From: a phage
Direction: 5' to 3' (one strand)
Length of the DNA: 42,242 bases
Sequence record: PX871047.1
The notes under the pieces were generated by a model, which did not search any database, was not told where the DNA came from, and saw nothing but the letters and a program-made list of their open reading frames with translations. Below are positions 15,527-40,333 of this stretch, piece after piece. Positions within the stretch are counted from its first letter, which is position 1; every line of letters starts with the position of its first letter. A program made the translations under genes and the position numbers.

Positions 15527-16695
15527 ATATGGCTACAACTCCTTTTAAGGGCGCGAATACCGCGCAATTCTATGTGGCGGAAGTGACCCCGGGCGTAACA
15601 CCAAGTAACCCGGTATGGTCGCCGTTGCGCAACACTGGCGGCGTTCCTGCGGTAACCCGCGATGCGCTGACCTCCAACGAACTGGACGGCAGCCGTGAAA
15701 CTACGTCCATCCGCACTGGTAACAAGCAGGTCAGCGGAGAGTATGCCATTGAGCTTAGCTCCCGTAGTCAGGATGATTTCCTCGCTGGTGCGATGACATC
15801 TACGTGGCAGGATGGGGTAGAGATTACGGGTGCAGAAATTACGGTCGCCCCCGTAGGTAAAACATTCACCCGCGCCGCTGGTAGCTTCATTACCGACGGT
15901 GTAGAAGTTGGCGACCTGATTGCGTTCACCGACTTAACCGGCGACAACGCAAAACCGTTTATCGTGACCGCGGTTTCTGCTCTTGTAGTTACGGGCGCGG
16001 GCATTCAGCACACGCTGACAGCAGAGACTGTAACCACCGACGCTAAAACCGGCGACAAACTGGAAACCGGTAACGCATGTAAGACGTTCTCCATCCTGAC
16101 ATGGTTCAAAGGACAGTGCGGGAACCCTGACGCGTACATGTTGACCAAAGGCGTGGAAATCTCCGGTTTCACCATTGAACAGGCCGTAAACGCGATGGTG
16201 ACAGGCAGCTTCCCGTTCATCGGTCTGAGTCAGGAAATTCTTTCCACACCGCCAGCAGGTTCTGATTTCTCTCAGGTGACGTTTACTGATGAGCCGTTCT
16301 CCTCTGTAGATGTGTCTGTGTTCGACGGTTCTACGCCGTTGCGTTGCGATACTCTGACCATCACCAACGACAACGGCGCATCTGCTCAGTTCGAACTCGG
16401 CAACAGCAGCGTTGCGTTCGTGGAACGAGGTCGCGCGGCTAACACCTTCTCCATCTCCGGCAAGCTGTACGACATGGCGATGATTCAGAAGTTTATCAAC
16501 GAACAGCAGGTAGAGATTAACTCTATTCTGGCGGGGGTAAACGGTGCTATGTCTTTCAGTTTGAAACGTGCCGAACTTACGGCGGTCACACCAGAAATAT
16601 CTGGCCCGGAATCAATTACCCAAAGTATAGAAGGGCAGTCCACAGGCAATCAGTACCAGTCGTCTATTGTTATCCAGCGTATCACCTACGCATAA
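15523..16695 (+). CDS. major tail protein (putative)
   Basis: 390-aa ORF, last gene before terminator, upstream of chaperone/tape-measure genes. Confidence 0.5.
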   Translation: MNMATTPFKGANTAQFYVAEVTPGVTPSNPVWSPLRNTGGVPAVTRDALTSNELDGSRETTSIRTGNKQVSGEYAIELSSRSQDDFLAGAMTSTWQDGVEITGAEITVAPVGKTFTRAAGSFITDGVEVGDLIAFTDLTGDNAKPFIVTAVSALVVTGAGIQHTLTAETVTTDAKTGDKLETGNACKTFSILTWFKGQCGNPDAYMLTKGVEISGFTIEQAVNAMVTGSFPFIGLSQEILSTPPAGSDFSQVTFTDEPFSSVDVSVFDGSTPLRCDTLTITNDNGASAQFELGNSSVAFVERGRAANTFSISGKLYDMAMIQKFINEQQVEINSILAGVNGAMSFSLKRAELTAVTPEISGPESITQSIEGQSTGNQYQSSIVIQRITYA

Positions 16696-16700
16696 AACTA

Positions 16701-16723
16701 AGGCCCCGAAAGGGGCCTTTTTC
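16701..16723. terminator. bidirectional intrinsic terminator
   Basis: AGGCCCC / GGGGCCT stem, GAAA loop, TTTTCT; near-identical to terminator at 29235. Confidence 0.7.
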
Positions 16724-19345: not shown

Positions 19346-19374
19346 ATAGTATCCTATTATGTTGGGGTGTGCAA
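19346..19374 (-). promoter_or_regulatory. promoter with embedded AATAG-N4-CTATT dyad (type A)
   Basis: Minus strand TTGCAC - 17 nt - TACTAT; 33-bp block 19342-19374 identical to reverse complement of 41273-41305. Confidence 0.6.
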
Positions 19375-27414: not shown

Positions 27415-29229
27415 ATGTCAAGCGGATGCGGTGACGTTTTAAGCCTGGCGGATTTACAAACCGCCAAGAAACACCAGATTTTCGAAGCCGAGGTTATCAC
27501 CGGTAAATCCGGCGGCGTTGCTACGGGTGCCGATATTGATTACGCAACCGATGCTGTTACAGGGCAAACCCAGAAAACACTCCCCGCCGTGTTGCGTGAT
27601 GCCGTATTTACTCCGGTTGCGTGGGATTTCTCTACAGGCGGTACGTTAACAGTTAATGACCGCAACAAAGTGGTTTATGACCCGGTGAGCAAAACGTGGT
27701 ACTCGTATGCAGGTACGTTGCCGGTTGTTGTCCCGGCATCGTTTAACCCGGTTGGTAATGCTAACTGGAAGCCACAGACCGACCCTGACTTACGACAGGA
27801 TTTAGCGGCTACTACCGCGCAGAAAGGAGCAAGCCTTGTCGGATATAAATCACCAGTAGCAGGCTCCGTAGCTACGACCTTGCAGTCAAAAGAATCGGAA
27901 TACGTCTCTGTGTATGACTTCGGGGCGAAAGCTGAACCCGGATTTGATAATGCCACGGCATTTGCATTAGTAAAAACTGCCGCGGAAGCAGGTATTACAA
28001 TTTTGTTCCCAGCTGGGACTTATGAAACATCATCCGAGCTTACATTCACGTCAGCAGTTAAACTTGTGGGTATGCCTGGTACACGTATTAAGATAACTGC
28101 ACCAGGAAAAGCTCATGTCATGTGCATTGACCTTCGCGGCCCAGTTGGTGATTACTGGGGTTACGGGGTGCACCTGGAAAACTTCATTCTTGACGGTAAT
28201 GGTAATGCGGTAGATGGATTATCTCTGCGCGGTGTTATCTCATCACGCTTTGTTAATATACGTGCTACTAACGTTACTCGTGCCGGTTTACATCGTTGGT
28301 GGACTCAATTATGTACCTTTGAGAATTTCCAGTGCTCATCTAACGTTGAAGCATTTACTACTACACCTGTTTACGGAATCCTCACTGACTGTGAGTTTGA
28401 TACCGGAAATGACCGTGGAAGCTCTGCAGATACGATTACTAACCCAGAAATAGAGCATGTATCCGGTACAGGCATATGTGGGGTGTTTGAGTCAAACTCC
28501 GTATACATAAACGGTACATCTGAAGGTAATAATATCGGAATAGCTTTCGGTAATACTGATAGCCGAAACCAGTCTGTTAGTAATACTGTAATAGGTATGG
28601 ACCTTGAGGTTAACACGGCTACAGATATTCTACTTTATTCGAACACCTATGCTAACGACTTCATTGGTTTGAAGGCAGGATATAACTCTCCTAGCATCCA
28701 GGTACAAGGTTCTTTTGGGAATAAGTGGCTTGGCGGTTCATGTGCTGGTATTGATTTTTATAGCGAGTCCCATGATAACAGAGTGTATGGTGTTTCACTG
28801 TTAGGCGAGGGGGCTGTAATAACAGATGCGGGGAGCCGCAACAAATACACTGATTGTTTTAATATTTCTACAGCAGCGGTCTCTGTATCAACAAACCCTT
28901 ACCCAAACCGCGGTAATAATGTTCTTGCTGCGAATGCCACCGCAACGATTGACCCTTACCGAGATAATCTTACTGTTGTTACCGCAACAAGTAGCCCTAT
29001 TAATATTGTGTCCTCAACTACACCACTGGACGGCGCAAGAATGGATTTGGTAATCCATAATAAAACTGGGTCGGATACCTTAGTTATCAACTGGTCTTCT
29101 GCGTTCAGGGTTGCTGGTTTTACAGCCCCCGCTGCCGGGAGACATCGTGGTATTTCCCTGGTCTATGATGCCAACTATGGCTACTGGTGTGTTGTTGGGA
29201 TGGCAACGGCTGACGCAGTTAGCGTATAA
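27415..29229 (+). CDS. tailspike / receptor-binding depolymerase with right-handed beta-helix fold
   Basis: VSVYDFGAKAEPGFDNATAFALVKTAAEAGITILFPAGTY resembles N-terminus of pectate-lyase-type beta-helix domains; AAAGAGGA RBS. Confidence 0.6.
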   Translation: MSSGCGDVLSLADLQTAKKHQIFEAEVITGKSGGVATGADIDYATDAVTGQTQKTLPAVLRDAVFTPVAWDFSTGGTLTVNDRNKVVYDPVSKTWYSYAGTLPVVVPASFNPVGNANWKPQTDPDLRQDLAATTAQKGASLVGYKSPVAGSVATTLQSKESEYVSVYDFGAKAEPGFDNATAFALVKTAAEAGITILFPAGTYETSSELTFTSAVKLVGMPGTRIKITAPGKAHVMCIDLRGPVGDYWGYGVHLENFILDGNGNAVDGLSLRGVISSRFVNIRATNVTRAGLHRWWTQLCTFENFQCSSNVEAFTTTPVYGILTDCEFDTGNDRGSSADTITNPEIEHVSGTGICGVFESNSVYINGTSEGNNIGIAFGNTDSRNQSVSNTVIGMDLEVNTATDILLYSNTYANDFIGLKAGYNSPSIQVQGSFGNKWLGGSCAGIDFYSESHDNRVYGVSLLGEGAVITDAGSRNKYTDCFNISTAAVSVSTNPYPNRGNNVLAANATATIDPYRDNLTVVTATSSPINIVSSTTPLDGARMDLVIHNKTGSDTLVINWSSAFRVAGFTAPAAGRHRGISLVYDANYGYWCVVGMATADAVSV

Positions 29230-29234
29230 AACTA

Positions 29235-29260
29235 AGGCCCCGTCTGGGGCCTTTTTTTTT
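29235..29260. terminator. bidirectional intrinsic terminator
   Basis: AGGCCCC / GGGGCCT stem followed by eight T; A-rich upstream. Confidence 0.8.
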
Positions 29261-32043: not shown

Positions 32044-32171
32044 TCCAGCACCCACAGATAAATTGCGATGAACATACCTAATACGGCTACAATCATGCCG
32101 TATTGGCCCTCGTGACAGTAGACACCGGCGGCAAATCCCGCCAGTACTGTGATAATCAGTTTACTTAGCAT
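32040..32171 (-). CDS. small membrane protein (43 aa)
   Basis: Start overlaps 3' end of polymerase gene; hydrophobic; ATGA-coupled downstream. Confidence 0.35.
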   Translation of the reverse strand: MLSKLIITVLAGFAAGVYCHEGQYGMIVAVLGMFIAIYLWVLE

Positions 32172-34434
32172 AACGGTACACCTCTCCCCCAGCCCATGTT
32201 AACGGGAACCCTTCGGCCCACTCAGGTAATGAGCATAGCAGGTCACCCATCTCTTTAACCGTGTACTCTGGCGTGTCTGGCGTTTCGGCAACACATTCGT
32301 CATGTACGTGGAGTACAATTGGGTAGCCCGCCGCCTCGACCGTCAGGAGTCCGTTAACCAGTAAATCACGGCACAACGCCTGGATGATGTTTTCACACAA
32401 TTTTCCGCCGTGTGTGTACAAAGTTGTCCACTGGCGGGTGGTCTGATTTTCGCCCTGGTATTTAATGCGAACGTTAGTTGTTACACGCCCGTCCTCGTCG
32501 GTCTCTTTAGTGACGCTTAAGCCTATGCCAGGGTAGGACATGATGCGCCCCGACGGCAGCTCCACGCACAACCACCAACCTGGCACAAAGTTACCTTGTC
32601 TGTCTTTCTCCTTAGTACGCCAGATGCGAATAGCTCTGTCGCCGTTGGGGCGGACTCTGGCCCCCGCCCAAAACTCTCGTCCCGGATTTCTAATTGCAGC
32701 AATCACCGAATCCTTAAGGTCGTTCCAGAATTTCACTGTTTCCGGATGGGCCTCACGCCACATGCGCTTGATAGCATCGCAAGTGCGCCAGACTTCTTTA
32801 GGCAGCACATAAGAGGCCCGTTCATCCTTTTTACCGGGTTTTGGGGGCCGCTTAGCCTCCTGAATCCGCGCCCATTCATAGCCTCGGGCAGTGGCGGCCC
32901 ATATATGGTCAGGGAATGTTCCCCGCATTGTCTCCGTCATTTTAAAGAGGTCCAGCCCGTAAGTTTTAGCCATAGTCATGAAGGCCCCCACGCCCCCCTC
33001 GTAGCCGAGGCCGAGCTCGCAACATTTCCCGACCTGTCGCAGGTCTTTACGGGTGGCTTTCAGTTCTATGGGGTCCATACCAAACATCTTGCCCGCAGTG
33101 GCGCAATAAATATCAATCCCCGCGCGGAACGTCTCAAGCGCGGATGTCTCCCCCGCGGTCCAGGCCAACCCGCGCCCTTCTACGTTTGAGTAGTCGGCAA
33201 CGAGCAACTTATTACCCTTTTCAGGGATGATGCAACTGCGAACAGTCGAGGCTGTCAGCTTGGATACGTCGAAACGACGGTGCGCCCGACCCTTTAGCAG
33301 CAGATTGATGCCGAACGATAGGGGGTTGAGACGACGGTTCCAGTCTTCGTCGGACTCCCACGGCTGGCGCACAAGTTTCTTTTCCTCGTTAGTCGGGTCG
33401 TCGTGGTAGTACCCGCGCGACAGGTTCTGCGGTTGGAACCCTTTACCCGCAAATCGTAAAGTGCGCTTTGCCCCACCGTACTGGATGCAACCGCGGCGGC
33501 GGCCGTCTTTGGACCGTCCTAGCAGGAGCGGTTTGTATTTTGTCGACGCCGTGGAGGCCGCGCCGAGGCGCATCTCAATGATTGTGCGCGCATCGTCAGG
33601 TAAGTCGTCGTCCTCTAGCAAACCTTCGAGCGTTGCTTTCTGTGCATTATAGATATTGTAGGCCGGTGCCAGCTCCCGAAGGATTGGCAGGAAGTCTTTA
33701 CCCGTTAGCTTCCCGCCAAATTTAGCCCTGGCCTCGTTTTTTAGCTCTTGCTTGTGGCGTTCAACTGCTGCTACCGCCGCCTCAGCAAGAGCCGCATCAA
33801 CAAAGAAGCCTCGGTCGTTGATTAACTGGTCAAGTTCAAGTACACGGTCCTCGAAATCGGAGTTACCCCAACGTGGCAGCTTATGGAAGACTTCACGCAT
33901 CGCTGTGATGTCGCTCACGGCATACTTGATGAACAGGGCCCACTCGTCAGGGTGAGTTTCTGCGGTGTAGCGGCGGATTTTGTAGTTCTTCGGCGTCGGT
34001 TTAGAGAAACGCTTAATCAGCGCCTTGCCGCGTTTATCTTTTGCATTGTCGGCGGATACGCCCAGCACTTCGCACAATGCGTCAAGTGACCCCGGCAGCG
34101 CGTGACGAAACGCCCAAATCATCGTATCAATGGTGTTGCTTACCGGAATATCAAAGTCCCAGCAGTGCTTCATGACGAGCCTGTCGAACATTGAGCCGTT
34201 GTGCCACACCATCTTAATACGACTGTTTGGCTTAACCAGGCGGCGCAAGGCGCGATGCAAATCCCCCGGCATGTCGCTGCCGTCAGTGCAGTCCCATACC
34301 TGAACAGGCTCGTCATCAAAAGCATAGGTGCAGATGAGCACTTCGGTAGTCGGGTGTTCGGCGTAAGCATAGGAGCCGACTTTCTTCAAATCGGCTTCGG
34401 AGAAGGTTTCAAAGTCTAAGAACAGATAACTCAT
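32161..34434 (-). CDS. DNA polymerase, family A, with 3'-5' exonuclease domain
   Basis: Exo motif LFLDFETFS; pol motifs DYSNVEGR, K...LGLGYEGG, VHDECV. Confidence 0.85.
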   Translation of the reverse strand: MSYLFLDFETFSEADLKKVGSYAYAEHPTTEVLICTYAFDDEPVQVWDCTDGSDMPGDLHRALRRLVKPNSRIKMVWHNGSMFDRLVMKHCWDFDIPVSNTIDTMIWAFRHALPGSLDALCEVLGVSADNAKDKRGKALIKRFSKPTPKNYKIRRYTAETHPDEWALFIKYAVSDITAMREVFHKLPRWGNSDFEDRVLELDQLINDRGFFVDAALAEAAVAAVERHKQELKNEARAKFGGKLTGKDFLPILRELAPAYNIYNAQKATLEGLLEDDDLPDDARTIIEMRLGAASTASTKYKPLLLGRSKDGRRRGCIQYGGAKRTLRFAGKGFQPQNLSRGYYHDDPTNEEKKLVRQPWESDEDWNRRLNPLSFGINLLLKGRAHRRFDVSKLTASTVRSCIIPEKGNKLLVADYSNVEGRGLAWTAGETSALETFRAGIDIYCATAGKMFGMDPIELKATRKDLRQVGKCCELGLGYEGGVGAFMTMAKTYGLDLFKMTETMRGTFPDHIWAATARGYEWARIQEAKRPPKPGKKDERASYVLPKEVWRTCDAIKRMWREAHPETVKFWNDLKDSVIAAIRNPGREFWAGARVRPNGDRAIRIWRTKEKDRQGNFVPGWWLCVELPSGRIMSYPGIGLSVTKETDEDGRVTTNVRIKYQGENQTTRQWTTLYTHGGKLCENIIQALCRDLLVNGLLTVEAAGYPIVLHVHDECVAETPDTPEYTVKEMGDLLCSLPEWAEGFPLTWAGGEVYRYAK

Positions 34435-34492: not shown

Positions 34493-35125
34493 TTAACCAC
34501 GGCGACGACGTTCGCGGCGCGGTGCTTCATCTTCTTCGTCGTCTTCCAGGTCGTCGGTGCTCGCTACTACACTGGAGCCGCCGAAGCGTTTACCTTCGCC
34601 CATATACTTGATGCCGAGGATGGTAGCGCACAGGTTTTTCCAATCTTTGTGCCACCATAATTCTACAGATACGTTTGCGATACATCCGCTATATACCTGC
34701 TCGCCTTCTATTTCTTTCCCGTCGATGTTGAAATCAGGCTCGGTTTGTTTTTCACCTTTAGCCGATGTCATAATCACCGGTTGGCGGTTGTTTGTAGCGC
34801 GGAAATACAGACCTTCTTCAAAATCCTCAATCGGATTATCTCGCATTGCCAGGTCACGTACACAGCACTTGTCCGCGTGGTGGTCTACGCCGTAGTTGGC
34901 CTTCATCCATTTTTCAGCCGCAGCGGTCCCGATCGCCTCTGTTACAACTTCCAGTGCGGTGTCGTAAAGCGCGTCGATTTGAGGGTGGTCAGGCTGCATA
35001 AGAACCGTAACCTGGTATTTGCCTTTAATCAGTTTACCGGTTTTCTTGTCCTCAGAGTCGGCAGCACGTTCAAATACGTTAACCCATGCAGTGTTTACTC
35101 TACGCAGATTCAGTTTAATACCCAT
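34493..35125 (-). CDS. putative ssDNA-binding / recombination-associated protein
   Basis: Genomic context between PD-(D/E)XK nuclease and polymerase; acidic C-terminal tract; own consensus promoter. Confidence 0.4.
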   Translation of the reverse strand: MGIKLNLRRVNTAWVNVFERAADSEDKKTGKLIKGKYQVTVLMQPDHPQIDALYDTALEVVTEAIGTAAAEKWMKANYGVDHHADKCCVRDLAMRDNPIEDFEEGLYFRATNNRQPVIMTSAKGEKQTEPDFNIDGKEIEGEQVYSGCIANVSVELWWHKDWKNLCATILGIKYMGEGKRFGGSSVVASTDDLEDDEEDEAPRRERRRRG

Positions 35126-35183: not shown

Positions 35184-35212
35184 AATATAATAGCTAACTA
35201 TTCAGGTGTCAA
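35184..35212 (-). promoter_or_regulatory. promoter with embedded AATAG-N4-CTATT dyad (type B)
   Basis: Minus strand TTGACA - 17 nt - TATATT; dyad 35189-35202. Confidence 0.6.
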
Positions 35213-35445
35213 CCCTTCCAGCCAGTTATTTTCTCAACTATCAGTACGTATTCGAAAGGCCACTCCAAATTCTGTACCCATTTAATTTCCTTTGTCGAGT
35301 CCAGTTGCTCGGGGTCTACCGTTTCATACTTAATCGCAACGTAGACCGTGAGTGGGAGAAGGATAATTAGAAGCGGCACTAACATTGCCCAGTAACAAAC
35401 AAATGCCACAAACCCACCAAAAACCCTGAACGTTTTACGAATCAT
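35209..35445 (-). CDS. small membrane protein
   Basis: ATG 35445 overlapping nuclease stop (ATGA); GAGGAGGA RBS; two hydrophobic segments; track ORF begins 35475. Confidence 0.45.
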   Translation of the reverse strand: MIRKTFRVFGGFVAFVCYWAMLVPLLIILLPLTVYVAIKYETVDPEQLDSTKEIKWVQNLEWPFEYVLIVEKITGWKG

Positions 35446-36692
35446 TCCAAATCCTCCTCTGTTACCTGATTCCACTCAGGCCGTTTGTCGTCTGCCGTTG
35501 TGACACATGGCGCGCCTGGCTTACGGGTAATAAACGGCTCAAGCGCGGCCATCTCATCCGCCGAAAGAACTTTTGCTGCCTCCGTAGGGGACATCAATAC
35601 CTCTTTTTTGAGAATGTCGCCGTGTGACACTTCAATCGCATCGGCATCTTTCCACGCACGATTACCTGGGCGGCCTTCAACGAGTTTGTACCCCGGCACT
35701 TTCTTACCAGAATACAAAGCGGCGGCCATAGCTTTCTCAACCTTGTCGATGTGCTGGCGCAACAACGGCAACTTCTCATACTCAGCTACGAGTTGCTCAG
35801 GCGTAAGTTCCAGTGCAAAGTCGTCCTCCAGTTCTTCCGCCAGCACCGCGTTAACCGTCTTTGTACGCGCGGCGCACTGTTCAGAGAACCGGCACCACTG
35901 GCAACCATCGACCGACGGCTTGAAGTCCGACGCTTTAAGGTTCTTCTTGCCGCGGAAATAGGCATCAAGAGCTAACAGCGCGCGTTTGCGTGCGAACTTA
36001 GCGAACAGTTCCAGACCTTCAACCGAGATGTCCCACTCCGACGCACCCCCAGCGTACGGCTGGAAGATGACCAGACGAACAACTGTGATGTTATATCGTC
36101 TCTTGAGGCGGCGATAAACACCGAGAGCGTATAGCATAAGCTGTTTGTTTTCTTTCGCTTCGACACGATGCCGTCCGGTTTTCAGGTCACCAATAATGAG
36201 CATGTGCGCGTCGGTGTTCGCCAGTTCCTGAACAGCAACAAGGTCGGCGGTTCCGAACGTCTCAACGCCTTCATACCCAGGATGCAACACCTCAGTGAGA
36301 TTTACGCGCATTTCTAGCTTGGCGTAAGTCGCTACATCGATAATCGCTTTGCAGTAGTCGGTGTGCTTGCGCACCTGCTCAATCATGTCGGCCGTAATCA
36401 GTACCGCGCCTTTCATAGGGCTGATTAGAGCCTTAATCTGGCCTTTACCCTCGTCCAGCACGTAAGCACCTACTTCACGCTCTAACGGCAACGCAGTGCC
36501 TTTGATGTACTGGTTTAGATGGACCTCTGCTATAGTGTGGCACGCGGTTCCCGTAACGGCGGATTTACCAGATGTATTAGGAATATCTTTTTCACAGGCC
36601 AGTGATGCGGCACAACTCAGCCACTTTTTAGCCCCAGACGGCGACAGCAGGGCGTGCACATCGTTATTGCCGCCGCGTTCCTTTAAAATCAT
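35442..36692 (-). CDS. PD-(D/E)XK nuclease, Cas4/RecB-like with Cys cluster
   Basis: GDLKTG and QLMLYAL motifs; N-terminal Cys plus C-terminal CQWCRFSEQC; ATG 36692 coupled to upstream gene (track ORF begins 36752). Confidence 0.65.
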   Translation of the reverse strand: MILKERGGNNDVHALLSPSGAKKWLSCAASLACEKDIPNTSGKSAVTGTACHTIAEVHLNQYIKGTALPLEREVGAYVLDEGKGQIKALISPMKGAVLITADMIEQVRKHTDYCKAIIDVATYAKLEMRVNLTEVLHPGYEGVETFGTADLVAVQELANTDAHMLIIGDLKTGRHRVEAKENKQLMLYALGVYRRLKRRYNITVVRLVIFQPYAGGASEWDISVEGLELFAKFARKRALLALDAYFRGKKNLKASDFKPSVDGCQWCRFSEQCAARTKTVNAVLAEELEDDFALELTPEQLVAEYEKLPLLRQHIDKVEKAMAAALYSGKKVPGYKLVEGRPGNRAWKDADAIEVSHGDILKKEVLMSPTEAAKVLSADEMAALEPFITRKPGAPCVTTADDKRPEWNQVTEEDLE

Positions 36693-36961
36693 GCTCTGTT
36701 CTCCCACTGGTCGATTAAATGTCGTGTCTTGTGGCCGCAATGTAAGGCCCATCCATACATCGACTCGAAGACATAAAAGTCAGGTTTGGCGAATGTCGTG
36801 CGCTTAATCTGCGACACGTGACGGCCTATATCTTCAGGGCGCGGTACTTTGCCTAAGTACGCCATCTCTTCCATCTGGTGTGCACCGGACGGCGCACGCA
36901 ACAGCCATAGCGCCTCTGTGTTATCCCGCCTGTCCACGGCGCGGTAGAGTTGGTAAATCAT
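36689..36961 (-). CDS. hypothetical protein
   Basis: Track ORF. Confidence 0.45.
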   Translation of the reverse strand: MIYQLYRAVDRRDNTEALWLLRAPSGAHQMEEMAYLGKVPRPEDIGRHVSQIKRTTFAKPDFYVFESMYGWALHCGHKTRHLIDQWENRA

Positions 36962-37200
36962 TCGGCGTCCCTCGCTTCCAGCATTGCATCAGCCATGATG
37001 TACGCCTTTTGCGCTACTTGCGCGGTGTTCCCTGCAGCTACAGGGTGAACTGCATCCGCTGGGTAACTAGCAAGCCACCCTTGAAGGGCTTTAGCCGCGA
37101 AATAATCGCGTAATGTCATGCCATCTTCCGTAGTCCAATCTGAGTTGAAGCCCACGTTACCCAACATAGGGAAAGCCTGTCCGCCTGTATTTTTACGCAT
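36958..37200 (-). CDS. hypothetical protein
   Basis: Track ORF. Confidence 0.45.
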   Translation of the reverse strand: MRKNTGGQAFPMLGNVGFNSDWTTEDGMTLRDYFAAKALQGWLASYPADAVHPVAAGNTAQVAQKAYIMADAMLEARDAE

Positions 37201-37220
37201 AATTCCGACCCTCAGTTAAA

Positions 37221-37236
37221 GCGGCCCGAAGGCCGC
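37221..37236 (-). terminator. stem-loop, probable terminator/attenuator after acidic protein gene
   Basis: GCGGCC / GGCCGC stem with CGAA loop; followed on minus strand by TTTAACTG. Confidence 0.4.
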
Positions 37237-37243
37237 GGGATAG

Positions 37244-37708
37244 TTATTCTTCTTCGAAATACTTGTTCTTGATTGCCGTCAGGCGTTCCAGGTATTCGGC
37301 CAGGTCTTCGTCTTTAATCGCGGCAATCTTCATCTTCTTACCGGTGAACTCTTCCAGCAGTTCGTCAGAATCATCACACGCGGCGTCGCTAGGGCCTTCG
37401 TTGATCGCATCGTCGATAGCCTGAATCTGGTCGCGCAGAGACTGGTAATCGACTTCTTCTTTCTCTTCTTCCGGCTCTGGCGTTGGTTCCTCTACTTTAG
37501 CTTTACGCGGCTTGCGTTTCGGCTTCTCTTCTTCTTCTGCCGGTTTAGTGTCAACGATGTCTTCACCTTCGACCGGGATTTCTTTTGTTGCAACAGTAGG
37601 CGTGATTGTTGCAGTTTCAGCAACGACAACTTGTTTCGCACTGTTCGCGGCAATCAGTTCATGCGCAACTACGAAACGTTCCAGTAATACTAAGAATTTC
37701 TCTAACAT
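37244..37708 (-). CDS. highly acidic early protein
   Basis: Glu/Asp-rich 154-aa ORF; GAGAGGAG RBS; flanked by consensus promoter and hairpin. Confidence 0.55.
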   Translation of the reverse strand: MLEKFLVLLERFVVAHELIAANSAKQVVVAETATITPTVATKEIPVEGEDIVDTKPAEEEEKPKRKPRKAKVEEPTPEPEEEKEEVDYQSLRDQIQAIDDAINEGPSDAACDDSDELLEEFTGKKMKIAAIKDEDLAEYLERLTAIKNKYFEEE

Positions 37709-37739
37709 TATTTATTCTCCTCTCGTTTGGTATGTGCCA

Positions 37740-37768
37740 ACTATAATAGCGAACTATTCACTTGTCAA
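37740..37768 (-). promoter_or_regulatory. promoter with embedded AATAG-N4-CTATT dyad (type B)
   Basis: Minus strand TTGACA - 17 nt - TATAGT; dyad 37745-37758. Confidence 0.65.
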
Positions 37769-37832
37769 TGGGCTTTTCTAAAATAATTAATATGGTACTA
37801 TTCACATATCAACTAACTAAGGAGTAATTGAC

Positions 37833-38048
37833 ATGCAACCATCTGAACTAGGCATCCGTGTAGAACAGCGCCGTAAAGAACTCGGTATCTCTCAGCGCCG
37901 TCTGGCGGTCCTGACCGGGGTTTCCCAGGGCGCAATTAACCAGCTTGCGCTCGGTGTAACTCAGGACGTCCGCCCGGCGACGCTGTTTAAACTGGCGGAA
38001 GTGCTGCAAGTAGACGCCAAGTGGCTGGCGTTCGGTGAAGGGGCTTAA
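37833..38048 (+). CDS. Cro/XRE-like helix-turn-helix transcriptional regulator
   Basis: LGISQRRLAVLTGVSQGAINQL HTH pattern; AAGGAG RBS; only plus-strand gene in the replication block. Confidence 0.65.
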   Translation: MQPSELGIRVEQRRKELGISQRRLAVLTGVSQGAINQLALGVTQDVRPATLFKLAEVLQVDAKWLAFGEGA

Positions 38049-38064
38049 CGCCCCTTTCTTTTTA
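38038..38064. terminator. bidirectional intrinsic terminator
   Basis: AAGGGGC / GCCCCTT stem followed by TCTTTTT. Confidence 0.6.
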
Positions 38065-38065
38065 C

Positions 38066-40333
38066 CTATTCCAAATCCTCCTCTGTCACTATCAGCATTT
38101 CATTCGGCTCGTATATTGTCTTCGGAATCTTGTTATCCGTTATCCTGGTATTAAGCCTGTAACGACCAGGGATTATCTGATTGTTTTCGTCAGTACCCGG
38201 AACAAGATACCCGGCCTCGACCATTTTCTTAATCTTCCCTCGCTCTATGGCTTCTTTGGAGTTAAACGCCTTCGCATTGGGGTCGGACTGTGCGAGCTTA
38301 TTTGCGGCGGCTACCGTGATACCTTCGTTGCCGTTGTAGGTTCCTTCCGCCAGTTCAAACGCGGCCAGTATCGTGGCCTCGGAACTGTTGACGGCGTTCT
38401 CTACGGTTTTACGTACGTTTTCTTTACCTTCCTTTGTTAGCCCTTCTTCGCGCTCTTTTTCCTCGTCGGTTTTGAACGGTTCGAAACCCCACGGCATCAG
38501 CACAAGCGCCTTGTGTGGTTCAGGCAGGTCGAGGTTTACTATTGTGCCGTATTCCTCTGTGCTACCGAGGAACTCAACAGCGCGGTACTCTTTCGGCGGC
38601 GGCGCTTCACGGAACTGTACCGACTCAAGCACCATACCAACCGTCTTCTGTTGAGGCCCGTGCTTAAATTTCGAGTGGTATACGTTTATCTGGCGGTCGG
38701 TCGCGCGTTCAATTGTCAGTTCCACGTCGACGCCAGCATACAGCGCCCCACTACCACGGGCTTTCTTTCCACCCTTCGGCGTATGGTGAACAACGCCTAC
38801 CGCGGCTTTAGTCGCGTCACGCACTTCTTTCAGGATGGCGATAACTTTACCCATGCCGATTGCCGTTGATGAGCTGTTCTCGTCGAACTTATCAATAGTC
38901 AGTGCCAGGGTCTGGTTGAGGGTGTCAAACGCGACCATGCCAATTGGCTCGTCGCCAGCAGTTTCGCGCATTAACTTAATCAGGCTCTTCAGTTTGCCGA
39001 CTTCGCCCATATCGATGACATGTACGTAATCTTTACCCTCTGCGCCGTATTTAGCAGCGAGCGCGTCAATACGTGTACGTGTGGCCGCGCCGCCCTCACC
39101 GTCGATATAGAAGTGGTGGCAACGCTGCGTATCAGCTCCCGCAAACCGGTATCCTGCGGCGCTAAGGTACATCATCCCCAGTGTATAAAACGATTTGTAC
39201 GTGCCAGATTCCCCGACGATATCCCAGATACAATCTGATGGCATGTACCCTTCAACGACGAAATCAGCCTTTACCGGTTCCGGTAACTCATCCTCCTCTG
39301 AGTCCTCGTCGTCTTCCAGGTCGTCGAGGCTGCATGAAACTGATTCACGCGCGCCCCAGCCAATTGCCTCAGCGACTTCACTGAACGGCAGCCCAGTCGC
39401 ATCGCACGCATACTTCCACACCTCTTTCGGTGACATGCCTTCGGTTGCCGTAATGTCGGTGTCGTGAATCATGGTTACGTTAGGCGCTTCATATCCTTCG
39501 CGTGGGAAGCACAGCAGGAAGTCGTCCGGGCGCGGGGTAGGGTCACTGTAGTTTTCGGCGTGTTCTGGTGTGGCTGGCATTTTCAGGCCGCGGGGCGTCA
39601 GGACTCCGCCGTACTCGAACGCCAGTGCTTCGAACGCATCAGTAAACGCTGTGCGCAGTTCTTCCGGTATCTGGTAGTCAGATGCGCTGCTCACCTCGTA
39701 ATCCGGGGTGCCTTCCAGTAACTCGTCCGGGTCAATCAGGTCGTTGCGGCGCGACCAGATAACGGTAGCGCCGACAGGAGGCAGGTACATCGGCTGGGAC
39801 AGGGTAAAACCGCTGCGGTCGGCGCCCATGCCCTTGAAGAAGTGCTCCAGCAGACCGTGGCGGACGCGGATGATATCACCGCCTTCTACCGGGCGCGCCA
39901 GCGGCATGACGACACGGAAACGCGGCGATTCGTCAGTGTGCGATGCCGTAGTGTACAGGCACAACGCTACACGACTGCGCTTAACCAGACGCACAGCCTC
40001 CTGATACTCTTCCGGTGTTGCGCTGTCGAAGTCCAGATACGCCAGCGACGATTCGCTTACAGACGCGTCACAACGGTAGAAGAAGCCTTTACGCGCTTGC
40101 TTAAAGTCACCGGTTTCCGGGTCTTTTACGGTGCTGTGCGTTGAGTCGCACGCGGCGGTAATGTAGCCCGGCGCGGTCTTTGGGTTAATCCCGTCACGAA
40201 CAGCATCTAGCGGCTGGATTAACTCTTTCAGGTCGTCCAGTGTTGCCGTGTGCGTGGTTCTGACGTTTATATCCTTTTTCTCCGCCCGCGCGTTGCGACG
40301 AGACCATGAATAGGATAAAATTACATCGGACAT
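38066..40333 (-). CDS. primase-helicase (AEP-type primase/polymerase domain fused to RecA-like helicase domain)
   Basis: N-terminal LDFD-containing primase-polymerase-like region; C-terminal Walker A GESGTYKS and RecA-like core. Confidence 0.6.
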   Translation of the reverse strand: MSDVILSYSWSRRNARAEKKDINVRTTHTATLDDLKELIQPLDAVRDGINPKTAPGYITAACDSTHSTVKDPETGDFKQARKGFFYRCDASVSESSLAYLDFDSATPEEYQEAVRLVKRSRVALCLYTTASHTDESPRFRVVMPLARPVEGGDIIRVRHGLLEHFFKGMGADRSGFTLSQPMYLPPVGATVIWSRRNDLIDPDELLEGTPDYEVSSASDYQIPEELRTAFTDAFEALAFEYGGVLTPRGLKMPATPEHAENYSDPTPRPDDFLLCFPREGYEAPNVTMIHDTDITATEGMSPKEVWKYACDATGLPFSEVAEAIGWGARESVSCSLDDLEDDEDSEEDELPEPVKADFVVEGYMPSDCIWDIVGESGTYKSFYTLGMMYLSAAGYRFAGADTQRCHHFYIDGEGGAATRTRIDALAAKYGAEGKDYVHVIDMGEVGKLKSLIKLMRETAGDEPIGMVAFDTLNQTLALTIDKFDENSSSTAIGMGKVIAILKEVRDATKAAVGVVHHTPKGGKKARGSGALYAGVDVELTIERATDRQINVYHSKFKHGPQQKTVGMVLESVQFREAPPPKEYRAVEFLGSTEEYGTIVNLDLPEPHKALVLMPWGFEPFKTDEEKEREEGLTKEGKENVRKTVENAVNSSEATILAAFELAEGTYNGNEGITVAAANKLAQSDPNAKAFNSKEAIERGKIKKMVEAGYLVPGTDENNQIIPGRYRLNTRITDNKIPKTIYEPNEMLIVTEEDLE

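Follow-up and report, generated by a model that had tools for sequence, protein, structure and literature searches.

The replicative helicase-primase and the DUF2800 PD-(D/E)XK nuclease of this Kagunavirus-type siphophage end in the same seven residues, V-T-E-E-D-L-E, and comparison with related phages suggests that TEEDLE-COOH is a short linear protein motif, probably a common docking tag on the replication and recombination proteins of this phage. On the comparative evidence the signal is in the protein, not in the DNA. The genes and elements concerned are listed in Table 1; "the window" is the whole 42,242-nt stretch analysed (PX871047.1).

Table 1. Genes, motif copies and other elements of the replication region.
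Feature	Position	Strand	Basis or remark
Family A DNA polymerase gene, 757 aa	32161..34434	-	Pfam
gp2.5/Enc34-ORF6-type SSB gene, 210 aa	34493..35125	-	Pfam PF10991; phrog_112
Acidic box (T190)-D-D-L-E-D-D-E197, SSB, motif copy 4	34536..34556	-	directly after OB fold
Small gene, 78 aa, one strongly hydrophobic (transmembrane-like) segment	35209..35445	-	hydropathy
Nuclease tail V-T-E-E-D-L-E, motif copy 2	35442..35465 (residues 35465-35445, TGA 35444-35442)	-	kept in orthologues
Shine-Dalgarno GAGGAGGA within E-E-D codons of nuclease tail	35452..35459	-	6 nt upstream of next gene's ATG
DUF2800 PD-(D/E)XK nuclease gene, 416 aa	35442..36692	-	Pfam, PHROGs; fold comparison
HTH regulator gene	37833-38048	+	convergent with helicase-primase gene
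Intrinsic terminator GAAGGGGC-TTAAC-GCCCCTTT + T run	38037..38065	+	serves convergent HTH regulator gene
Helicase-primase tail V-T-E-E-D-L-E, motif copy 1	38066..38089 (residues 38089-38069, TAG 38068-38066)	-	kept in orthologues
Acidic box D337-D-L-E-D-D-E343, helicase-primase linker, motif copy 3	39306..39326	-	21-nt repeat with SSB gene
Replicative helicase-primase gene, 755 aa	38066..40333	-	Pfam AAA_25; phrog_3228 E=6e-286

An earlier note on this DNA had described the shared VTEEDLE-stop and an identical 19-nt block beneath it, and the coordinates (35444-35462 and 38068-38086) and reading frames were all confirmed. The block, ATTCCAAATCCTCCTCTGT on the + strand, occurs exactly twice when both strands of the window are searched, as a direct repeat with no inverted copy; about 0.003 exact 19-nt direct repeats would be expected by chance in 42 kb (N^2/2 x 4^-19). 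Both copies are in frame and encode TEEDLE-stop, the nuclease gene ending on the - strand in ...cag GTA ACA GAG GAG GAT TTG GAA TGA and the helicase-primase gene in ...ata GTG ACA GAG GAG GAT TTG GAA TAG. The "similar flanks" that the note also mentioned are similar only in a weak sense: identity widens to 21/24 nt (GTR before, T after) and there is none beyond. The window has 480 stop-to-stop frames with a length of 40 aa or more, and among them just these two real genes have an acidic ..DL. tail. A second exact repeat, of 21 nt and absent from the earlier note, is read in frame as DDLEDDE both in the helicase-primase linker and in the SSB tail. The motif core, [TS]-[DE]-x-D-L, is thus present in four copies in three proteins (twice in the helicase-primase, once each in the nuclease and the SSB).

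The linker copy comes after the N-terminal primase region and before the AAA_25 helicase domain; the SSB copy is followed by EDE and then a basic end, APRRERRRRG. The nuclease has a Cas4/AddB/AdnAB/MGME1-like fold with four invariant Cys, and its start codon (ATG at 36692) overlaps the upstream gene's stop as ATGA. The polymerase, with a conserved, non-acidic C-terminus (..YRYAK), is the one core protein of the module that never carries the tail. Downstream of the nuclease, the ribosome binding site and overlapping start reported earlier are both present: GAGGAGGA (35459-35452) precedes an ATG (35445-35443) that overlaps the nuclease stop codon, again as ATGA, and the 78-aa product, with its transmembrane-like hydrophobic segment, has no match in PHROG or Pfam. 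This gene, a variable insert, separates the nuclease gene from the promoter preceding the SSB gene (TTGACA-17-TATATT, 35212-35184); in relatives without it, the nuclease TAA is followed directly by TTGACA. At the other tail site the terminator lies immediately next to the helicase-primase stop codon, and the helicase-primase thus has no translationally coupled gene in this genome.

Examination of orthologues, as the earlier note had proposed, found the tail to be widely kept. The core plus 0-3 residues forms the end of 114/117 helicase-primases and 110/117 nucleases, in at least six genera, with identity falling to 45% and codons that differ. Among other reading frames, just 2/5207 end this way. 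Entropy is zero in the D and L columns, and D416 and L417 are invariant among nine nucleases that are 41-51% identical. Among Kaguna-, Jersey-, Cornell-, Dhillon- and Eiauvirus and Klebsiella phage 37P2, the helicase-primases end in VTEEDLE, TTEGDLE, SEEDDLEN, ASDEDLNS, ATDDDLKD or ATNSDLED and the nucleases in VTEEDLE, VSEEDLE, TEDDLEA, ATDSDLDD, ASDEDLS, ATDEDLSNE or VKDDDLVD. Both synonymous and non-synonymous DNA changes are seen beneath the kept peptide, and the motif is shown to be under purifying selection as protein. The nuclease copy is not strictly essential, since there are viable natural variants: K1H-type nucleases end in SEEDSE, with the Leu lost, SS3e-type ones in TEDDLEALTS, and one lineage is truncated. 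The internal copies are also kept. In related phages the linker box reads C[QT]DEDLxDEP or CDEEDLDDEE, and it is duplicated in L031 and eiAU-183; all near-clade SSBs have A[TS]D[DN]DL[DG]DDD at the same place after the OB fold, with the motif internal and the extreme C-terminus basic rather than acidic.

Primase, nuclease and SSB tails co-vary genome by genome in the phages compared. In more remote phages that share the module of primase, nuclease, gp2.5-SSB and PolA, the tails differ between genomes and match within them (…DDEI, …DEV, …DDLLG, …DDL). Examples are vB_C4 (YDDEEI, WDDDEI, EDDDEI and EEDDEI), ER24 (DDEDEV, DDDEV and WEDEV), L145 (DDLLA, DDLLG and DDLLG), L141 (DDL three times) and BIP-1 (EDLV and ADLV). 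Permutation of tails among 56 de-replicated genomes, which are related and not fully independent samples, gave p=2e-5 for nuclease and SSB, p=4e-5 for primase and SSB, and p=7e-4 for primase and nuclease, while the polymerase controls in the same permutation were not significant (p=0.39 with nuclease, p=0.12 with SSB). The best local 6-mer shared by nuclease and SSB gave p<5e-5, against p=0.86 for the polymerase control. Co-variation within genomes extends to the residues on either side of the DL of helicase-primase and nuclease (p=5e-5, 7e-4 and 0.012 when de-replicated at three levels). For the tail of the SNF2-like helicase, co-variation with the SSB was not significant, and it is matched in a few lineages only.

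These patterns bear on whether the DNA rather than the peptide is what is kept. Gene conversion or short-homology recombination, or some DNA or RNA element, might hold the 19-nt and 21-nt copies identical, with the peptide incidental; the earlier note had offered gene conversion of a coupling signal as its alternative. Identical codons at all six positions are indeed improbable given identical peptides and the codon usage of the window (P ~0.004 for TEEDLE, ~0.009 for DDLEDD), and variable gene cassettes border both tail sites in relatives. However, the helicase-primase and nuclease 18-mers differ by 3.50 nt within genomes and 3.49 between them (28 distinct allele pairs, p=0.57), with just 2/28 pairs identical, and the SSB and linker boxes by 1.69 and 1.74 (p=0.59). 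Gene conversion is not supported, because the two sites are no more alike in nucleotides in the same genome than across genomes. Repeat identity also ends exactly at the peptide edges, distant genera hold the peptide with quite different DNA, the block has no third occurrence on either strand of the window, and what adjoins its helicase-primase copy is a terminator, not a coupled gene. This explanation is largely refuted and retains hardly any probability. Only a little less improbable is that the tail is kept for the Shine-Dalgarno sequence in its GAG/GAT codons and the ATGA overlap of the downstream gene, the amino acids being passengers. Translational coupling at the nuclease site, as the note supposed, is borne out in relatives, where GAGGAGGA is found in 11/15 ATGA-coupled nuclease alleles and 0/10 uncoupled, TAA-ending ones (Fisher p=5e-4). 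Genes of this operon generally overlap as ATGA (the arrangement at 35442-35459 and two further junctions), and GAGGA precedes the overlapping start in 37P2 and SO-1 as well. The arrangement at 35442-35459 is exactly that of known ATGA coupling with a Shine-Dalgarno sequence inside the upstream gene, but what it explains is codon choice, at one of two sites only, and not the conserved peptide. Uncoupled nuclease alleles still encode SEEDLE, through GAA GAA; the helicase-primase tail is present despite the terminator after it, and persists in VSiP and SO-1 although gaps of several hundred nt follow; GAGGAGGA at that site does not track coupling (7/13 vs 8/22); and the invariant Leu, the SSB copy and the linker copy cannot serve as ribosome binding sites. 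Most likely the 19-nt identity is a by-product of identical peptides, to which codon choice adds because GAG GAG GAT also serves ATGA-coupled genes downstream as their Shine-Dalgarno sequence.

A common docking motif, also put forward in the earlier note, is favoured by conservation, recurrence and co-variation, and by analogy with T7. It would consist of an acidic run and a Leu anchor, with the core near the free C-terminus, and a single basic receiver site would be contested by all four copies, by analogy with T7. The predicted receiver is most likely the family A polymerase, a candidate because it is tail-less, and/or the SSB, a candidate through its OB groove and itself a motif carrier; the polymerase is too divergent from T7 gp5 for a basic patch to be mapped by sequence. 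Each acidic tail might instead be a DNA mimic, folding back on the DNA-binding surface of its own protein with no common partner. Auto-inhibition by an acidic tail has been described for gp2.5, gp32 and bacterial SSB, and the tails here are acidic. Enc34 SSB without its tail has altered DNA selectivity (PMC5686142), and in an AlphaFold2 model the last residues of the nuclease form a short helix at moderately high confidence (about 81), which would agree with cis packing, so that this tail may be packed on its own protein rather than free. Self-inhibition as the whole explanation is nonetheless unlikely: identical genome-specific terminal residues (I, V, L, LLG) would be a surprising requirement for folds so unrelated (OB fold, Cas4-like nuclease, primase/helicase, SNF2 helicase), within-genome co-variation points to one shared reader, and the core, with its invariant Leu and conserved Thr/Ser, is more than negative charge. 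Recruitment of a host protein (processivity factor, clamp, SSB partner or chaperone) would have precedents in T7 polymerase, which employs host thioredoxin, and in bacterial SSB tails, which recruit many host enzymes; Firmicute-type SSBs of the module have the ending ..DDDFL[SGA], which resembles the tips of bacterial SSBs. It is nevertheless very doubtful, since tail types differ by phage on the same hosts, E. coli and Salmonella (EEDLE, DDDLKD and DEDEV, with DGDF and DTDF in T7), which argues for a phage-encoded, co-evolving receiver, as does the divergence of tails between close phage lineages whose tails match within each genome.

Several known systems resemble the proposed docking tag in part. 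In lambda Exo and Red-beta, as in RecE and RecT, a PD-(D/E)XK 5'-3' resection nuclease adjoins the gene for a single-strand binding or annealing protein, and lambda Exo and RecE are among the structural relatives of the nuclease found by Foldseek. In lambda the annealase's C-terminal domain binds the nuclease directly (PDB 6m9k), whereas here nuclease and SSB have a peptide in common, the former being an Fe-S enzyme of Cas4/AddB type. T7 gp4 and gp2.5 have acidic ...DF tails that bind basic patches of gp5 DNA polymerase/thioredoxin and compete with each other for the front one (PMC12339929; bioRxiv 10.64898/2026.05.20.726333); that of gp2.5 is also found in the DNA-binding groove of the SSB itself. 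There too a helicase-primase and a second replication protein share an acidic end with a hydrophobic anchor (..DTDF and ..DGDF, both xDF, compared with ..EEDLE twice here), the SSB is of the same structural family (PMC5686142), and the obvious partner without a tail is a family A polymerase. The parallel is imperfect, because the SSB motif is internal here and the SSB end basic. The anchor is also Leu plus 0-3 residues where T7 has a terminal Phe, the other C-terminal copy belongs to the Cas4-like nuclease (T7 gp6 exonuclease has no tail), there is an extra copy in the helicase-primase linker, and the helicase-primase is of AAA_25 type, not homologous to gp4. Enterobacter phage Enc34 has an SSB of the same family (DUF2815/PF10991), the ORF6 protein, whose acidic tail is unstructured and, in the crystal, docks into an adjacent SSB molecule's groove (PMC5686142); in T7 the acidic tail of this family is the partner-binding element (PMC5686142; PMC12339929; bioRxiv 10.64898/2026.05.20.726333). 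The duf2800-gp2.5-polA module has the same neighbourhood of nuclease, SSB and PolA (PMC8093625). These papers cover the SSB tail and the gene module, and neither in them nor in literature searches was a report found of a tail common to nuclease and primase, or co-varying between genomes.

The tip of bacterial SSB (..DDDIPF) is similar in having an acidic run and hydrophobic residues at a free C-terminus. It is an interaction hub, read by pockets on many genome-maintenance enzymes. In bacteria the tip is on the SSB only and the pockets on the enzymes, whereas here the enzymes bear the SSB's tip, which implies competition for one receiver rather than hub and spoke. Such competition would provide for the recruitment and handover of polymerase, primase-helicase, nuclease and SSB on single-stranded DNA.

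The helicase-primase (HP, 755 aa) and the DUF2800 nuclease (NUC, 416 aa) of the window both end in VTEEDLE, as the earlier note had recorded, and the 19-nt repeat behind the two tails, ATTCCAAATCCTCCTCTGT, is found exactly twice in the window. Each copy encodes TEEDLE and the first base of the stop codon; the preceding Val is GTA in one and GTG in the other, and the similar flanks also described in that note hold only weakly, the similarity ending where the peptide ends. Chance alone would give ~0.003 repeats of this kind, and no other real gene of the window has a TEEDLE-like end. A second exact direct repeat, of 21 nt (TCGTCGTCTTCCAGGTCGTCG on the + strand), encodes DDLEDDE in frame at both of its sites, in the SSB just after the OB fold and in the linker between the two halves of HP; these are two further copies of the tail motif. 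The acidic segment after the OB fold of the SSB reads TDDLEDDEEDE, and the last 10 residues are basic (APRRERRRRG). Since the SSBs of the clade end in a basic stretch, this copy of the motif is internal.

Genes of the replication region, with repeats and gene overlaps in the window
Feature	Coordinates	Strand	Family matches or site
Family A DNA polymerase (PolA)	32161-34434	-	
SSB, Enc34/T7-gp2.5-type	34493-35125	-	PF10991 E=2.9e-11; phrog_112 E=1.8e-31
Small 78-aa hydrophobic protein	35209-35445	-	
DUF2800/PD-(D/E)XK nuclease (NUC)	35442-36692	-	PF12705, PF10926
Three small genes	between NUC and HP	-	
Replicative helicase-primase (HP)	38066-40333	-	AAA_25; phrog_3228
19-nt repeat ATTCCAAATCCTCCTCTGT	35444; 38068		NUC and HP tails
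21-nt repeat TCGTCGTCTTCCAGGTCGTCG	34536-34556; 39306-39326	+	SSB and HP linker
21-nt repeat CTATTATGTTGGGGTGTGCAA	9617-9637; 19354-19374		
17-nt repeat ATAAAACTAAGGCCCCG	16692-16708; 29226-29242		hairpin terminators
ATGA stop/start overlaps	35442-35445; 36689-36692; 36958-36961		successive operon junctions

The region is ~90% identical at the nucleotide level to Kagunavirus siphophages (K1G, K1H, K1ind, and relatives; subfamily Guernseyvirinae). The genes for the DUF2800 nuclease, the DUF2815 SSB, and the family A polymerase are adjacent and all on the - strand, as in the duf2800-gp2.5-polA gene module already described (PMC8093625), and their order is the same in all relatives fetched. In the NUC alignment D150, D169, and K171 are invariant, as are C27, C264, C267, and C273; the AlphaFold2 model has a pLDDT of 90.8, and its top Foldseek matches are Cas4-family ACE1, AdnAB, MGME1, Dna2, Exo5, and AddAB. 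With the nuclease core and the four-cysteine cluster both present, NUC is a predicted Cas4/AddB-type Fe-S PD-(D/E)XK nuclease. One 758-aa representative (P0133) is a fusion: an uncharacterised stretch of ~350 residues comes first, and the DUF2800 nuclease makes up the C-terminal half (residues 354-756), with the end ..SVTDDDLSD. At 37833-40333 the HP gene is co-oriented with the nuclease operon and converges on an HTH regulator gene, with a terminator common to both. In Cornellvirus, Dhillonvirus, Eiauvirus, and Klebsiella 37P2 (L043-L047) the HP gene is encoded by the other strand and lies downstream of the HTH gene, and this difference indicates an inversion or rearrangement at the HP locus in the Kaguna/Jersey lineage. 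The window SSB is ~61-66% identical to that of most Kagunavirus loci compared (L001-L039) and 95% identical to that of L016, so the genus is mosaic for this gene, with at least two alleles in circulation, and both of these retain the acidic box as well as the basic end (..DDLEDDEEDEAPRRERRRR).

The survey of near-clade tails covered 117 related loci, drawn from IMG/VR and from GenBank, and took other frames of at least 100 aa as background. The pattern [DE]xDL plus 0-3 residues forms the end of HP in 114/117 loci and of NUC in 110/117, compared with 2/5207 other frames, so that the tail is indeed kept in orthologues, as the earlier note had proposed to check. The motif survives at protein identities as low as 45%, encoded by unrelated codons, and when nine nucleases of 41-51% identity are aligned its D and L are invariant columns, like the catalytic residues. 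The internal copies are conserved equally, as A[TS]D[DN]DL[DG]DDD right after the OB fold of the SSB and as C[QT]DEDLxDEP, sometimes doubled, in the HP linker. Because the peptide persists with unrelated codons and also occurs internally, the conserved unit is the peptide [TS]-[DE]-x-D-L, present in four copies in three proteins. Departures are seen in NUC: the K1H type (L002/L085) ends in SEEDSE, with Leu changed to Ser; the SS3e type (L032/L092) has lost its stop and gained four residues, reading TEDDLEALTS; and the L021/L129 lineage ends ~60 residues early (..SHGVCF). These variants may be useful natural experiments on tail dispensability. The SSB tails of Dhillonvirus, Eiauvirus, Cornellvirus, and Klebsiella 37P2 (L044-L047, L053-L131) are long polyampholytes of repeated units, for example KPRKSKKSKRRDDDDEDD, ending in RRRR; this low-complexity expansion sits after the conserved TDDDL box.

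Two sites encoding one peptide should agree in all six codons in only ~0.4% of cases, and gene conversion, one of the explanations offered in the earlier note, was therefore tested. HP and NUC 18-mers (28 distinct allele pairs) are 3.50 nt apart within genomes and 3.49 between genomes (p=0.57), and just two of the 28 pairs are identical; SSB and linker boxes are 1.69 nt apart within and 1.74 between genomes (p=0.59). With no homogenisation within genomes, gene conversion or concerted evolution is rejected for the 19-nt and 21-nt repeats alike. A chance origin of the shared tail is rejected on the ~0.003 repeats expected, the 2/5207 background frames, and the permutation tests described below.

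The suggestion that the block serves as a ribosome binding and translational coupling signal stands for the NUC copy and falls for the HP copy. The tail codons of the window NUC contain an SD sequence, GAGGAGGA, 6 nt upstream of the ATG of the overlapping 78-aa gene, and ATGA overlaps occur at three successive junctions, each preceded by a GGAG-type SD, making coupling the rule in the nuclease operon. Across NUC alleles, ACA GAG GAG GAT TTR GAA goes with a TGA stop and an A-TGA overlap starting the next gene, and AGT GAA GAA GAT TTR GAA with a TAA stop that has a TTGACA promoter box immediately after it; 11/15 coupled alleles contain GAGGAGGA, compared with 0/10 uncoupled ones (Fisher p=5e-4). 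The HP copy in the window has no coupled gene, its TAG being followed at once by the terminator of the convergent HTH regulator gene. Coupling accounts for codon choice at the NUC site only, and it was set aside as the cause of conservation of the peptide. Since there is no homogenisation and NUC codon choice follows the downstream context, the 19/19 identity is a coincidence, in which a NUC allele with SD-type codons meets an HP allele with the same codons. For annotation, the exact DNA repeat is neither a mobile nor a regulatory element.

The window holds other repeats as well. Similarity between the copies of a third exact direct repeat, CTATTATGTTGGGGTGTGCAA, reaches upstream (TGAATAGTAnn) to give a shared element of ~33 nt containing the near-palindrome AATAG-N4-CTATT; the structural and late genes may have a regulatory site or operator here. 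Two near-identical GGCCCC hairpin terminators with T runs, located after genes ending at 16695 and 29229, have the 17-nt repeat ATAAAACTAAGGCCCCG as their 5' half.

More distant NUC relatives were collected by exhaustive search of representative proteins and by tblastn against annotated phages; homologue listings otherwise gave only near-identical proteins. Beyond a conserved DDKRP motif, DUF2800 proteins generally (150 representatives) have a short tail that is acidic and contains a hydrophobic anchor. In a wider set of phages and prophages with a primase (PRIM), a DUF2800 nuclease, a gp2.5-type SSB, PolA, and sometimes an SNF2-like helicase, the tails vary from genome to genome and match inside each genome. 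A second box common to nuclease and SSB, [DE][DE]F[DE][DE][LIV][ST], comes after the globular domains of both proteins in, for example, Jess A, APSE-3, BIP-1, Staphylococcus IPLA35, and Paenibacillus Rosalind.

C-terminal tails of replication proteins in near-clade relatives (first four rows) and in the wider module
Phage or locus	HP or PRIM	NUC	SSB	SNF2-like helicase
VSiP (Cornellvirus)	SEEDDLEN	ATDSDLDD		
Klebsiella 37P2	ASDEDLNS	ASDEDLS		
SO-1 / SECphi4 (Dhillonvirus)	ATDDDLKD	ATDEDLSNE		
eiAU-183 (Eiauvirus)	ATNSDLED	VKDDDLVD		
Aeromonas vB_C4	YDDEEI	YWDDDEI	WEDDDEI	AEEDDEI
Chi-like ER24	FDDEDEV	DDEDDDEV	DWEDEV	VWDDEE
L145	DIDDLLA	DVDDLLG	GDDDLLG	not matched
L141	..DDL	..DDL	..DDL	not matched
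L226	DSLI	DSLV	GGLI	none found
Burkholderia AH2	ECDL	FDDL	ADGL	not matched
Bordetella BIP-1	not matched	VEDLV	AADLV	not matched

Matching was assessed by permutation of last-five-residue identities, with each of 56 polymerase clusters, made at 70% identity, represented by a single genome; single linkage at 50% polymerase identity leaves nine clusters and loses power, so the figures are for the 70% level. Across the 56 clusters, whose genomes are still phylogenetically related, tails match between NUC and SSB (p=2e-5), PRIM and SSB (p=4e-5), and PRIM and NUC (p=7e-4), while the polymerase controls are not significant (POL-NUC p=0.39, POL-SSB p=0.12). In 20 proteobacterial-type lineages the last residue is the same in NUC and SSB in 55% of cases vs 17% expected (p=2e-5). 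The best local 6-mer between NUC and SSB tails scores 20.4 vs 16.8 +/- 0.5 (p<5e-5; polymerase control p=0.86). In the near clade, residues flanking the DL co-vary between HP and NUC, with p from 5e-5 to 0.012 depending on the level of de-replication. Co-variation of the SNF2-like helicase tail is seen in ER24, vB_C4, and SNUABM08 and is not significant overall.

Some NUC and SSB tails have other forms. In Jess A (Caulobacter; L132 6995-8365) and Erwinia SNUABM08 (L137 4026-5219) NUC holds the motif of its genome internally, followed by 6-10 unrelated residues; the Jess A protein ends ..PEPDGV-RSGSSPHPFR, vs ..DDDGV in the primase and ..DDDQV in the SSB. This suggests loss of a stop codon, a frameshift, or a sequencing error. 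Firmicute-type phages and prophages (L146-L217, L227-L298) have two classes of SSB tail, ..DDDFL[SGAN] and a non-acidic ..[DN]P[IVL]TG.P[ILMY]; nucleases in genomes of the second class do not match the SSB tail, a hint of a different partner logic.

Conservation, recurrence, and co-variation of the tail are shown, and they favor the docking motif proposed in the earlier note; binding of the motif to a partner, and the choice of that partner, are inferred. The closest studied system is T7, where the tails of gp4 and gp2.5 bind a front basic patch of the polymerase and a patch on its thioredoxin-binding domain, competing with each other (PMC12339929; bioRxiv 10.64898/2026.05.20.726333), and where the gp2.5 tail is needed for stimulation of the gp6 exonuclease (PMC4124056). 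Like T7, the window phage has a gp2.5-type SSB (T7-like OB fold) with an acidic segment after the OB fold, and its HP tail motif is common to another replication protein, NUC, conserved and co-varying in the clade. However, the window tails end in ..D-L-E with an invariant Leu at -2, whereas T7 has a terminal Phe anchor (gp4 and gp2.5 end in ..DTDF and ..DGDF), and HP is not homologous to gp4, a DnaG-like primase plus DnaB-like helicase; it has AAA_25 as its only Pfam match, falls in phrog_3228, and has D5/primase-type relatives. PolA matches solved family A polymerases over motif A only, T7 gp5 not being among the matches, and with just motif A aligning the T7 front basic patch cannot be mapped by sequence onto the window polymerase. 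The window SSB is of the same structural family as that of Enc34, in whose crystal the acidic tail is unstructured and inserted into the groove of a neighboring SSB (PMC5686142).

Most economically, the motif's four copies would act as interchangeable plugs that fit a single socket. First among the candidates for this receiver is the polymerase, because no other core protein of the module is always without the tail; the SSB groove is second, and both may apply, as in T7. A phage-encoded socket is likelier than a host-encoded one because phages of the same hosts have different tails. Some packing of the NUC tail in cis is also possible, since AlphaFold2 models it as a short helix with moderately high confidence. 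Overall, the comparisons support probable acidic-tail docking of the T7 kind, which here has Leu as the anchor, four copies of the motif, and a recombination nuclease as one of the tailed proteins. Open-access literature text describes the module (PMC8093625) and the SSB tail (PMC5686142), but no account of tails that are shared or co-vary was found in it.

More tentatively, and at somewhat less than even probability, there could be a genome-specific "tail code," in which every enzyme working on SSB-coated DNA has its own copy of the C-terminal peptide of the SSB and the tails co-evolve with a single receiver encoded by the phage, a patch on the polymerase or the groove of the SSB. It would extend over the widespread module of primase, DUF2800 nuclease, gp2.5-type SSB, and PolA, with or without the SNF2 helicase, in sets of two to four tails; Kagunavirus TEEDLE would be one dialect. 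Such a code would give each phage a private wiring of its replisome and its recombination machinery, orthogonal to that of the host and of co-infecting phages.

Acidic tails are textbook replisome "Velcro" in T7, T4, and bacterial SSBs. To our knowledge very few systems have been investigated for them, and work on T7 has covered the SSB and helicase-primase only. The principle apparently extends to a Cas4-like recombination nuclease and to internal linker copies and, in relatives, to primases of other families and an SNF2-like helicase, with tail matching within genomes spanning Guernseyvirinae, Dhillonvirus, Casjensviridae, Rauchvirus, and many prophages. A shared tail would explain the functional membership of the nuclease in the replisome. 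The observation is of moderate interest in itself, and of more if tail matching is a general wiring principle of the module. The matched tails give a cheap, sequence-only handle on likely interaction partners in the replication module of thousands of phages. If the tail code is true, it would become possible to predict replisome partners with nothing but sequence and to re-wire replisomes through tail swaps.
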